From an uncultured Thermoleophilia bacterium (lineage in GTDB: Bacteria > Actinomycetota > Thermoleophilia > UBA2241), in the NCBI GenBank assembly GCA_963831295.1, contig CAWHPR010000002.1:319964-383963 (forward strand): a stretch of DNA of 64,000 nt, written 5' to 3'. This document shows, in pieces, positions 1 to 41,642 of this stretch (positions are counted from its first letter, which is position 1; each line of letters opens with the position of its first letter). Below the pieces are notes generated by a model, which did not search any database, was not told the DNA's origin, and saw only the letters and a list, made by a program, of their open reading frames with translations. The position numbers and the translations under genes were made by a program.

Positions 1-448
1 CCCAGCCGATGATGTCGGCCGTCGCCTCCGCCATCTGCGCCCGCACGATGGCGTAGGAGGAGTAGAGCGACACGCGCTCGAGCAGGAAGGACAACATGAC
101 CAGCGCGCCGCCGGCCAGCAGACCGTAGACCAGGACCAGCACGGTCTCGGCTCTGAGCAGCTGCTGATCGACCATGACGACGATCGCGAACGCGAGGCAC
201 AAGAAGGCGGCCGCCCCGACGATGCGCGGTCGCATCGAGATGGCCAGCAGCGTCAGCGGCACGAGGTAGAAGCCGGACCAGATGAGACCGTGGACCCGGA
301 TGTCGAGGTAGAAGACCGTGGCGATGCCGACGGCCGCGACCAGACCCACGAGGACAGGATGACGCTGGAGCCACTCGAGGCGACGCACCACCTGCGGGTG
401 CCGGCGGGCCGCGGCGACGAACCTGGCCGTGCGTTCGGTCCTCTCCAC
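1..448 (-). CDS. N-terminal part of a membrane protein, probably the sensor region of a signalling protein; runs off the window edge
   Basis: Read manually: GTG at 448 after GAAAGGGG, open to base 1 (MERTERTARF...LVGLVAAVGIATVFYLDI...GFYLVPLTLLAI), several hydrophobic helices. Confidence 0.6.
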   Translation of the reverse strand, partial: MERTERTARFVAAARRHPQVVRRLEWLQRHPVLVGLVAAVGIATVFYLDIRVHGLIWSGFYLVPLTLLAISMRPRIVGAAAFLCLAFAIVVMVDQQLLRAETVLVLVYGLLAGGALVMLSFLLERVSLYSSYAIVRAQMAEATADIIGW

Positions 449-24593: not shown

Positions 24594-26015
24594 TCAGGAG
24601 GCCGACGTCTTGCCCGAGACCAGACCGGTCTTCTTCTTGAACTGCTCGACGCAGTTGATCTCGATGTCGAGCAGTTCGGCGATGCGCACCTTCGCGGCTA
24701 TGCCCTTCGCGATGCCCGGGACGCCCGTGATCGTGCCGATGTCAAGCTCTTCCCTGACACCTCGCATCATGGTCGGATCGGACAGGTCGAGCGCTGTCAC
24801 GTGAAGCTTGTCGGCCACGTACCTCTTGGCGTCGTCGATCCTCATCTTCTTGTTGAGCTGCATCCTCGCCACTAGATCTCCAGCGGCCCGGATGCCACCC
24901 ATCGATGAGGCCAGCAGATGCGCCAGGTGCATGCCGGCAGGGTCACCCGTACCCACCTACAACCCGTCGGCCTTGCCGATCTCGATCATGGCGGCGCTGC
25001 AGCGCGTGACGACGTCGACGGCGGGCGTCTCGAACATCGGCACGCCCCCGACGCCCATGCCGACGTTCGGATGCACCGGGATCTTGGCGATCTGGGTGCA
25101 GGCCTTCACGAAGGTCAGCGCGCGGGCGAGGTTCCACGGGACCGTCTTCCTGGTGTTGGTGTTGCAGACGGGGCCGAAGATCGCACAGCCCGCCTGTTCA
25201 CACAGATCGAGCTGCTGATGTGGCCAGAGGCCGGCGAGCCGGACGCCGTTGTACTCGAGCTCGCCGTGGAAGCCGAGGACCATCTCGGACGACATGCCGA
25301 TCTCGACCGGCAGGCCCGTCTCCTTGGCGACGTGCTCGGTGGTCTTGAGGACGGCCAGGAACTCGGCGTCGCCGGTCGAGGCGACCGTGTCGTAGTCGAT
25401 GCCGTCGGCGCCCATCGCGACCATGCAGTCGCTCATCTCGACGCAGTCCTCGAGGCAAGCCTCGAGGGCCTCCTCCTGCGTGCGGCGCGCCTCGTCGATC
25501 TTGCCCAGGGGCAGCAGGTCCGAGGGGTTCTCGAAGGAGCCGTCGGGCCGGTAGTAGAGGCCGAGGTTCGGCATGAAGCCGTAGAGCAGCGGGAAGATCG
25601 TCACCTCCTGGAGGATCTCCATGTGCAGCATCTCGAGCGCCTTGAGGAAGCGCTGCGGCTTCACCGAGTAGTCGTTGTGCGAGACCTCCATCGAGTCGAA
25701 GCCGAGCATCGACTCGAAGAGGCGCACGCCCACCTCGCGGTTGACCGGCGCGACGACCCCGCTCGACATGCGCGAGGAGTTGAGCGCGTTGACGCAGCCG
25801 TCCTTGGTCATCACGACCTCGTTGCCGCGCTGCACGCCCCAGAGTCGTGTCGGCGCCGAGAACATGTCGACGAGGAAGTCGATCTCGTTCTCGGTCAGCG
25901 TCGGGATCTTGGCCTTGACCGCGGCCGCCTCGGACCCCGTCACGAACTCGCTTCTCAGCTCGTCCGGGGTGAGCTCGACGTTCGAGGCGTCGCCCATCCT
26001 GGTCAGTATCTTCAT
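24594..26015 (-). CDS. mtbB: Dimethylamine:corrinoid methyltransferase with in-frame TAG (predicted pyrrolysine, codon 353), 473 aa by readthrough
   Basis: MKILTRMGD...[13 protein letters not shown]...EIGKADGL-[TAG 24957-24959][13 protein letters not shown]...[14 protein letters not shown]...REELDIG...AKGIAAK. From memory this matches the Methanosarcina MtbB pattern DGI-O-IGVGDP. Confidence 0.92.
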
Positions 26016-40263: not shown

Positions 40264-41642
40264 GAGGCCGGCACCTCGAGGCCCATGCCGGCCAGCTCGC
40301 TGCGGACCTCCGCGATCGTGCGCAGGTACTCCTCGTTCACGATCCGCTTCGTCTTCATGTCGTACACCTGCTGGAACGTGAGGCCCTTGTCCGGGTCCTT
40401 CAGCTTGTCGCCGAACAGCGGGAACAGTCTCTGGGCCAGAGGCTCCGCCTCGGCGCGGGTGAGCTTCGCGGTCGCGAGACCGATCTCCGCGTGGAACTTG
40501 TGGTCGTCGGGCACGAGCGAGTCGGGCTGCACGGCCATGGACGGGTGACCGGAGAAGACATTGCCCCCGGAGGTCACGACGGCCAGCATGTAGCAGGCCA
40601 TCTCGTAGTGGTACTGCTTCGTGCCCGAGCCGCCGCCCAGGTACGGCAGGTTCACCATGGGGTAGCCCATGTTGCGACCGATCGCGGCGTTGGACATCGC
40701 GATCGCCCAGATGAGGGGCTTCGTCGAGCTCAGGTGCAGTTTGCTGTGCAACGGCGCGTTGTAGTGGTAGCTGCCGCGGAAGATGAGGTTGCCCATGATC
40801 ATGTAGGCGGTCGCCTGCACGGCGATGCCCTCCGCCCCGCCGGCGTAGCCGCCGAAGAGGGGCGTGGACGTGGAGCCGATGTTGGCGCTGAGGCTGTTGT
40901 AGAAGGCCACCTTCTGCAGCGCCTCGTAGCCGACCACCATCTCGGAGAGAAAGTCGATCAGGAAGCCGTCGCTCGGACGCAGGCCGAAGTCGGGATGACT
41001 GGCGGCGAACATCGAGGCCGGCTGCGAGGCGGCTGAGATGCCGTTGATGATCGGCAGGCCGGCACGCCCCGAACGACGGATGCCCTCGCGCGCCAGCCGC
41101 ACCGTCTTGCAGGCAGCAAGGACCTCCTGCGGCGAGCGCACGCGCGCGTCCTTGCCGCGCAGATGCAGGATGGACGGCACGCTCACGGAGTCGACGATGC
41201 TGTACGAGGCCATCATCTCGACGGTGTCGAGGTAGACCTGCTCATCGGTCGTGTAGATGCCGCCGCCGACGTGCACCCACGGACGGTCGTCCGTGGTGTC
41301 GGGGCGGCGGCCGTACATCGCCTTGCGCTCGCGGCCCTCGCCGAAGACCGCGCTGGTCGGACACTGACCGCAGGCAGTGAGGACCTCGTCGTGGGTGAAC
41401 TCCATCACACGGTTGGTCTCGGGACAGTAGGCCCCAGCCTCGGCGATCAGGTCGACGGCGGCCCGGAAGACGCGGTCAGTGAGGTCGTCGTCAGTATTGA
41501 TGATGGTCTGCTTGTCCCACTTGACGCCGTGGCGCGCCAGCAGCTCGCTGAGCTTCGGCACGTAGCGCTTCATGTAGTAGTCGGTCTCGGAGATGAGCGG
41601 GCCGGACTCGGCGCGCTCGAACACCTCTGTCAAGTCGATCAT
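40260..41642 (-). CDS. mtmB: MtmB-family (monomethylamine) corrinoid methyltransferase, pyrrolysine-free
   Basis: ERAESGP, YCPETNRVMEF, RSGRAGLP, STPLFGGYAGGAEG, GSGT. No in-frame TAG. Confidence 0.82.
   Translation of the reverse strand: MIDLTEVFERAESGPLISETDYYMKRYVPKLSELLARHGVKWDKQTIINTDDDLTDRVFRAAVDLIAEAGAYCPETNRVMEFTHDEVLTACGQCPTSAVFGEGRERKAMYGRRPDTTDDRPWVHVGGGIYTTDEQVYLDTVEMMASYSIVDSVSVPSILHLRGKDARVRSPQEVLAACKTVRLAREGIRRSGRAGLPIINGISAASQPASMFAASHPDFGLRPSDGFLIDFLSEMVVGYEALQKVAFYNSLSANIGSTSTPLFGGYAGGAEGIAVQATAYMIMGNLIFRGSYHYNAPLHSKLHLSSTKPLIWAIAMSNAAIGRNMGYPMVNLPYLGGGSGTKQYHYEMACYMLAVVTSGGNVFSGHPSMAVQPDSLVPDDHKFHAEIGLATAKLTRAEAEPLAQRLFPLFGDKLKDPDKGLTFQQVYDMKTKRIVNEEYLRTIAEVRSELAGMGLEVPAS

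Follow-up and report, generated by a model that had tools for sequence, protein, structure and literature searches.

How a UAG that encodes pyrrolysine (Pyl) is told apart from a UAG that ends a protein has been an open question since 2002. One described system for comparison is the bacterial selenocysteine insertion sequence (SECIS), a hairpin that forms inside the reading frame beyond a recoded stop codon and constrains synonymous sites there. SECIS directly follows the UGA, is indispensable and has a dedicated reader, SelB, and to our knowledge there is no SelB-like dedicated factor for Pyl. Here we examine the mRNA that follows the in-frame UAG of an mtbB gene in a 64-kb stretch of DNA (hereafter the window) from an uncultured Thermoleophilia bacterium, in which the 100 nucleotides (nt) from the UAG match the Rfam pyrrolysine insertion sequence (PYLIS) family PYLIS_2 and a hairpin starts 74 nt from the UAG, farther away than in SECIS. 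The problem of discriminating Pyl from stop in bacteria was raised by Zhang and Gladyshev (PMC1976440). The PYLIS of Methanosarcina barkeri mtmB1 (RF01982 PYLIS_1), which like the element examined here is an mRNA structure downstream of the Pyl UAG in a methylamine methyltransferase gene, was proposed to aid Pyl insertion and has been reported to be non-essential (PMC3639795; bioRxiv 10.1101/2024.09.30.615893). A computational study predicted consensus structures in the 100 nt after the UAG for mtmB and mtbB and none for mttB (Have et al. 2013, PMC3639795), and the Rfam PYLIS families probably derive from that analysis.

The window gene belongs to a genome assembly of 1.73 Mb in four contigs, with 70% GC and 57% completeness. 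Taken as a whole, the observations are probably best explained by a conserved mRNA element, PYLIS_2, which is apparently tied to UAG decoding and whose footprint is a drop in G+C at third codon positions (GC3) after the amber codon. The features on which this reading depends are the following.

24594..26015, minus strand: mtbB, pyrrolysine-type dimethylamine:corrinoid methyltransferase, 473 codons plus TGA (TIGR02368, PF09505)
24957..24959, minus strand: in-frame TAG, codon 353, the pyrrolysine codon, in the motif DGL-O-VGTGDP (sequence and translation)
24960..24965, minus strand: upstream context GGG UUG, rare codons for Gly-Leu before the UAG (codon conservation)
24860..24959, minus strand: the 100 nt from the UAG, RF02509 PYLIS_2 match and core of the low-GC3 patch (cmscan)

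The mtbB product matched TIGR02368 (NCBIfam) with 510 bits, above the cut-off of 369, and PF09505 (Pfam) with 608 bits across one internal TAG. This TAG aligned with the TAG of 93/93 related mtbB genes, and the gene thus matches the MtbB family over its full length and has one in-frame TAG, placed where Pyl is conserved. In a cmscan search, RF02509 PYLIS_2 ("pyrrolysine insertion sequence mtbB") was the sole Rfam match in the 64-kb window, scoring 67.4 bits against a gathering score of 36 (E = 4.7e-16) and spanning the full model, positions 1-100, beginning at window position 24959, the U of the in-frame UAG. The two paralogous mtbB copies of the genome also matched RF02509, and its two Pyl-type mttB genes matched RF02510 PYLIS_3 at 67-70 bits. 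Because the coding sequence around the element is itself strongly conserved, an RNA structure is not proven by the Rfam score, and the structure was therefore examined directly.

The original prediction, made from the window sequence, had described an abrupt change in codon usage right after the amber codon, and every count behind it was reproduced. Only 1/60 codons just before the TAG ends in A or T (CAT), compared with 10/28 just after it (GGT three times, CCT, CAT, TCA, GCT, GGA, GAT and CTA; p = 2.5e-5). The first 71 codons after the TAG hold 17 such codons and the last 49 hold three, and four AGG codons are also present. Over the whole gene, A/T-ending codons amount to 12/352 before and 20/120 after the TAG (Fisher p = 4.6e-6). 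As a background, a crude set of 1206 open reading frames (ORFs) was used, taking the last two thirds of each, in which 8.7% of codons end in A or T. Windows of 28 codons with at least 10 A/T-ending codons make up 1.4% of this set, and 10.7% of the genes have one. Such low-GC3 patches are therefore not common in this genome; the original prediction had named their being common in other genes as an observation that would speak against it. In this gene alone the patch is unusual, not unique, and its recurrence at the same place in every relative examined is beyond chance; chance was ruled out as its cause on the basis of both the 1.4% frequency and the fixed positions in all relatives.

In order to follow the patch across relatives, a codon alignment was made of 93 unique mtbB genes from related uncultured Thermoleophilia and public metagenome-assembled genomes (MAGs), extending down to ~57% protein identity; the homologous-protein search reached relatives of at least 58% identity. 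The share of A/T-ending codons in these genes climbs from 6.3% upstream of the TAG to 23.0% at codons +1..+30 and falls back to 8.6% beyond, so that GC3 recovers ~30-45 codons after the TAG and is not low to the gene end. The rise is carried by particular codons. Gly +26 is GGA in 93/93 genes, Asp +27 is GAT in 75/93 and Arg +39 is AGG in 83/93, while upstream of the TAG Gly -2 is GGG in 78/93 and Leu -1 is TTG in 87 and TTA in 6, never CTN. Genome usage of these codons is low, with GGA at 5.9% of Gly codons, TTG at 4.0% of Leu and AGG at 6.0% of Arg. The AGG at +39 (window 24841-24843, minus strand; context AAG AUG AGG AUC) falls outside the 100-nt Rfam model, and no pairing partner was found for it.

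The two further mtbB copies of the same genome (contig C4:224017-225359 and contig C3:373122-374480, both minus strand) each carry the TAG and one or two frameshifts, being either pseudogenes or indel errors of long-read assembly, and both show the rise after the TAG (11/50 and 10/40 codons ending in A or T). All genomes of family-level relatives with mtbB that were examined have several copies with exactly one TAG per copy, and no TAG-less MtbB orthologue was found among genomes of the same family.

A second set was obtained by scanning metagenome contigs for the variant pattern O-I-G-x-G-D-P-x-G-M, which gave 102 distinct mtbB segments of 43-70% GC. The frequency of A/T-ending codons at +1..+30 holds at 0.30-0.52 in this set while the upstream background spans 0.11-0.58. 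Such buffering is what a constraint at the nucleotide level predicts, and it makes the patch conspicuous only in GC-rich hosts. Across all relatives, particular bases are thus retained at synonymous sites of codons +1..+30.

The best-supported component of the element is a hairpin of 7 base pairs with a 4-nt AGAY loop, which was shown to be kept by many independent compensatory changes at two pairs of synonymous sites. Its parts in the window gene are as follows.

24880..24886, minus strand: 5' arm, nt +74..+80, CCGCUGG (covariation, RNAalifold)
24876..24879, minus strand: loop AGAU, nt +81..+84, the third base of the invariant GGA plus the GAU codon (codon conservation)
24869..24875, minus strand: 3' arm, nt +85..+91, CUAGUGG (pairs 75:90 and 78:87 covary)

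In a whole-gene covariation scan over column pairs within 200 nt, the helix +74..+80/+85..+91 came first, with a sum of 2.13 versus 0.79 for the next. Most pairs of the hairpin are dictated by the protein motif A-A/T-G-D-L-V-A and are therefore uninformative either way; pairs 75:90 and 78:87 join third-codon positions that are free to vary. Among 89 distinct 100-mers, pair 75:90 is CG in 60, UA in 12, AU in 8, UG in 7, GC in 1 and another combination in 1, and pair 78:87 is UG in 37, CG in 31, GC in 17 and UA in 4, with none unpaired. The observed covariation score was reached by 0/500 shuffles. Positions 74-80 pair with 85-91 in ~97-100% of the 89 sequences, and sliding the partners by 1-3 columns left only 30-42% paired. 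On a gene tree built without the element, ~9 independent double changes that keep the pairing were counted at 75:90 and ~10 at 78:87. RNAalifold applied to the 89 sequences recovered the hairpin independently, and the 3' hairpin of PYLIS_2 (model positions 73-92) forms and is conserved in these genes. G79:U86 is invariant and G76:U89 is common, and such G:U pairs mean that the structure forms only in the sense RNA and not in DNA. Pair 78:87 of the window gene is U:A and comes from the rare codons GCT and CTA, with the loop coming from GGA and GAT; these are four of the ten A/T-ending codons listed above. Raw mutual information and whole-gene lists of single pairs were swamped by clade-defining substitutions and purine-pyrimidine column pairs, and were discarded as evidence.

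The metagenomic segments tell the same story at the hairpin, a region left unbiased by a search pattern that spans only nt 1-30. The hairpin is kept in the 102 genes, with CG, GC, UA and AU all present at 75:90 and CG, AU and UG at 78:87, and the loop reads AGAU in 74, AGAC in 16, UGAC in 5 and CGAC in 3. Of 87 segments with full flanks, 65 are paired at 75:90 (39 expected) and 80 at 78:87 (60 expected), values that 0/5000 shuffles reached in either case, and the tree of these segments requires 11 double changes at 75:90 and 5 at 78:87.

Compared with RF02509 PYLIS_2, the window element belongs to the same gene family, occupies the same 100 nt from the UAG with a full-length match, and has the same 3' hairpin, whose loop in the model is aGAc. 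It differs in that the host is an uncultured Thermoleophilia bacterium of 70% GC and not a methanogen, in that pair 78:87, unpaired in the model, is always paired and covaries here, and in that the upstream UUG context lies outside the model. The window element thus belongs to a known, predicted Rfam family and is found in a new host, and covariation now gives good support to one of the two modelled hairpins; since the element was already in Rfam, the gain is one of evidence and not of a new class.

The other methylamine methyltransferase families of the lineage were compared by measuring the frequency of A/T-ending codons in homologues with no in-frame TAG (non-Pyl) at the same alignment columns as in their Pyl-type relatives. 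Pyl-type mttB genes (n=55) have 7.0% before the TAG, 18.1% at +1..+30 and 7.4% at +31..+100, and non-Pyl MttB paralogues (n=47) have 8.0%, 6.3% and 6.9%. For Pyl-type mtmB (n=6) the values are 10% before the TAG, 18% at +1..+30, 29% at +31..+70 and 9% later, and for non-Pyl MtmB homologues (n=25) they are 7.9%, 7.9%, 7.5% and 6.9%. The bias is therefore missing at the same positions of the non-Pyl MttB and MtmB homologues, where its presence would, according to the original prediction, have counted against a link to the TAG. The window itself holds one of the many non-Pyl MtmB/MttB paralogues of the lineage that were used as controls, an MtmB-family homologue without an in-frame TAG at 40278-41636 on the minus strand (PF05369, 223 bits).

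Pyl-type mttB resembles mtbB in its rise of A/T-ending codons and in a small hairpin whose 4-nt loop begins with an invariant A, although the two protein families are unrelated and the covariation in mttB is weaker, being confined to one pair. This hairpin, GUUGGC[AGGN]GCCAAC at nt +69..+84, includes a GCA codon that is invariant in 55/55 genes and one pair that changes on both sides (U:A in 43, C:G in 8); the same columns are unpaired in the non-Pyl paralogues. The Thermoleophilia mttB hairpin is not part of the Rfam PYLIS_3 structure. PYLIS_1, which differs from the mtbB element in its gene family and in being a long stem-loop that starts a few nt after the UAG, is matched by Thermoleophilia mtmB genes with only 46-58 bits against a gathering score of 70. 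In Pyl-type mtmB of related genomes (L343-L348), codons +32 (AAT), +45, +46 and +67 always end in A or T, and a candidate hairpin CAGCU[NAAUG]AGCUG can be drawn at nt +91..+105 from six genes, too few for covariation.

The context GGG UUG UAG G, with Gly-Leu before Pyl, is common to mtbB, Pyl-type mttB and mtmB of the lineage (also in L116, L117 and L343-L348). The Leu at -1 is UUG or UUA in 93/93 mtbB, 32/32 Leu-type mttB and 6/6 mtmB genes, which may reflect an effect of the P-site codon or its tRNA on UAG decoding. When the whole genome was scanned for TAGs with an AGRN-loop hairpin following at this distance, mtbB and Pyl-type mttB were the only real reading frames returned, and no new Pyl genes emerged.

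Regarding the decoding machinery, the same genome codes for the PylS large subunit at C4:118058-118783 (TIGR02367, 303 bits versus a cut-off of 178). Its gene adjoins genes for a methyltransferase-type corrinoid protein and an aminotransferase. Neither ARAGORN nor Rfam found tRNA-Pyl in the 14 kb near pylS (C4:112000-126000) of this 57% complete genome, and there was no recognisable pylB, pylC or pylD beside pylS in the same interval, no search aimed at pylBCD having been made. Among the 1206 ORFs of the crude set, 244 end in TAG (~20%), 935 in TGA and 27 in TAA. The source organism thus uses UAG frequently as a stop and also for Pyl; with TAG at the end of about one fifth of its ORFs, it has to deal with the problem of telling the two apart that Zhang and Gladyshev described for bacteria.

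We consider it very likely that the segment of mtbB after the UAG is constrained at the RNA level. The GC3 fall would then reflect purifying selection at the nucleotide level on the mRNA just downstream of the Pyl codon, made visible in a genome of 70% GC. Bases held against G/C drift stand out in so GC-rich a genome, and a GC3 dip thus offers a cheap readout of RNA-level constraint from sequence only. Combined with the non-Pyl controls, this readout shows selection as RNA on the post-UAG segment of all three methylamine methyltransferase families. Because the signature follows the UAG of Pyl-type mttB and mtmB and is missing from their non-Pyl paralogues, we infer that the element is linked to the decoding of UAG in these transcripts; judged from comparative sequence data, a role in Pyl decoding itself is a plausible proposal that falls a little short of an even chance. 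Most likely, the element would make a larger proportion of ribosomes insert pyrrolysine instead of terminating, or would protect the message or keep transcription coupled while ribosomes wait at the UAG. More tentatively, the hairpin at +74..+91 together with the fixed P-site UUG could be a recoding or anti-polarity signal, analogous hairpins having arisen separately in mttB (+69..+84) and perhaps in mtmB (+91..+105). Such a signal would let bacteria that use UAG as a frequent stop read it as Pyl in just these mRNAs and, if true, would overturn the current view that Pyl insertion needs no mRNA signal. For mtbB, a single hairpin has been singled out that is directly accessible to synonymous and compensatory mutation. 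Of the explanations offered in the original prediction, a cis-acting RNA context favouring Pyl insertion thus stands as far as the RNA constraint is concerned, given the PYLIS_2 match, the position-specific pattern in 93 + 102 mtbB genes and the covarying 7-bp hairpin, and the favouring of Pyl insertion stays a conditional part of it.

Several observations weigh against a PYLIS_2 element tied to UAG decoding. Much of the RF02509 score stems from conserved coding sequence, and the 5' hairpin of the model (positions 7-38), a further difference from the window element, is not kept here and was rejected as a conserved structure: 67.5% of its cells are paired in 89 relatives, its pairs 11:34, 13:32 and 17:27 are unpaired in 94%, 69% and 100% of the 89 sequences, and cmscan marks 6 non-standard pairs in the window sequence. 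Only 4/10 of the A/T-ending codons among the first 28 belong to the proven hairpin, and CAT +13, TCA +17, GGT +20 and the AGG codons recur without being accounted for by it. At 74 nt after the UAG, the hairpin starts too far away to touch the ribosome that decodes the UAG. The Pyl-type mtmB sample consists of only 6 genes. The non-Pyl paralogues are old, diverged enzymes, for which reason absence of the element from them fits any gene-specific RNA function and not only recoding. A cis-element was expected for bacteria that often use UAG as a stop, and bacterial Pyl genes searched manually yielded no common structure (PMC1976440). No experimental test of the mtbB element was found in the literature searched, and PYLIS has been published as dispensable for Pyl insertion (bioRxiv 10.1101/2024.09.30.615893).

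The main rival shares the RNA element and gives it a job unrelated to the choice between Pyl and termination, as an RNA polymerase pause site that counters Rho polarity, a stabiliser against RNase or a site bound by a regulator of methylamine genes. The position of the hairpin, 74-91 nt from the UAG and out of reach for a ribosome decoding it, and the published dispensability of PYLIS both suit such a role, as does the finding that the families carry different hairpins, which would fit a positional or physical role better than a shared motif. However, two of the families have non-Pyl paralogues in the same genomes, and there only the genes with a TAG carry the signature. It always starts at the UAG together with the fixed P-site UUG, and no terminator-like U tract follows the hairpin. 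We regard this alternative as rather unlikely.

Selection on translation speed, with rare codons slowing the ribosome, for example for folding of the active-site segment that carries Pyl, appears improbable. GGA, GGT, GAT, CAT and AGG do cluster in the most conserved segment of the protein, but slow translation does not predict paired changes (CG, GC, UA, AU) that keep complementarity at two pairs of sites, nor the choice of the common CTG or GTG where the pairing partner requires it. Even less credible is relaxed translational selection downstream of an inefficiently read stop, put forward in the original prediction, under which codon bias would simply decay. It accounts for A/T-ending codons being commoner after the TAG of mtbB than before it, but not for an effect that ends ~30-45 codons on, for rare codons that are invariant in 93 genes (GGA in 93/93) and a fixed UUG that precedes the TAG, or for covarying pairs. 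The other explanation offered there, a recombination or gene-conversion patch from a lower-GC donor that has yet to drift to host composition, is equally hard to sustain: although the Rfam consensus, from lower-GC organisms, has many of the same A/U third positions, the nearest neighbours (L030, L028, L027, L025 and L032) do not differ between the 5' part, the patch and the 3' part, 5' and patch identities have a rank correlation of 0.93, and the pattern is common to deep paralogues down to ~57% identity and to three paralogues in the genome, with the rest of each gene rich in GC3.

Two further readings of the segment were considered and set aside, an internal Shine-Dalgarno-like signal at GGAG-N5-GUG and avoidance of Rho through C-depletion, neither of which explains the covariation. 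Additional features near the UAG are listed here.

24941..24957, minus strand: candidate small hairpin, nt +3..+19 (G3:C19, G4:Y18, U5:A17, G7:Y15, Y9:G13; RNAalifold, 89 sequences)
24854..24901, minus strand: possible hairpin extension (59-63/102-106 and 65-70/95-100 around the core; minimum-free-energy fold)
24744..24806, minus strand: second, weaker cluster of A/T-ending codons, codons +51..+71, 7/21 (codon count)

The candidate hairpin at nt +3..+19 is compatible with the data, with no two-sided change in any pair, and would account for the restriction of the third positions of codons +2, +4 and +5, which face G, to C or U. Another candidate hairpin encloses the UAG by pairing GGGUUGU at -6..+1 with nt 14..20; it is 84-100% paired and likewise shows no two-sided change in any pair. 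The minimum-free-energy fold of nt -6..+110 has -57.7 kcal/mol (z = -2.94). Its outer extension helices are conserved mostly through the protein sequence and show little covariation, the outermost not being kept in the metagenomic set. The cluster at codons +51..+71 has 20-35% A/T per position across the family and is common mainly to same-genus orthologues. Upstream of the TAG, codons 265-277 (window 25185-25223, minus strand) form a further cluster with 6/13 codons ending in A or T (CCA CAT .. GAT. TGT GAA ... TGT), which is not kept across the family (at most 20% per position). The nearest public records are MAGs that carry the label uncultured Thermoleophilia (Actinomycetota), among them CAWBNR010000008.1 with 99% identity, and the neighbours of mtbB in the window encode a transketolase, a HAD hydrolase and PPK2.

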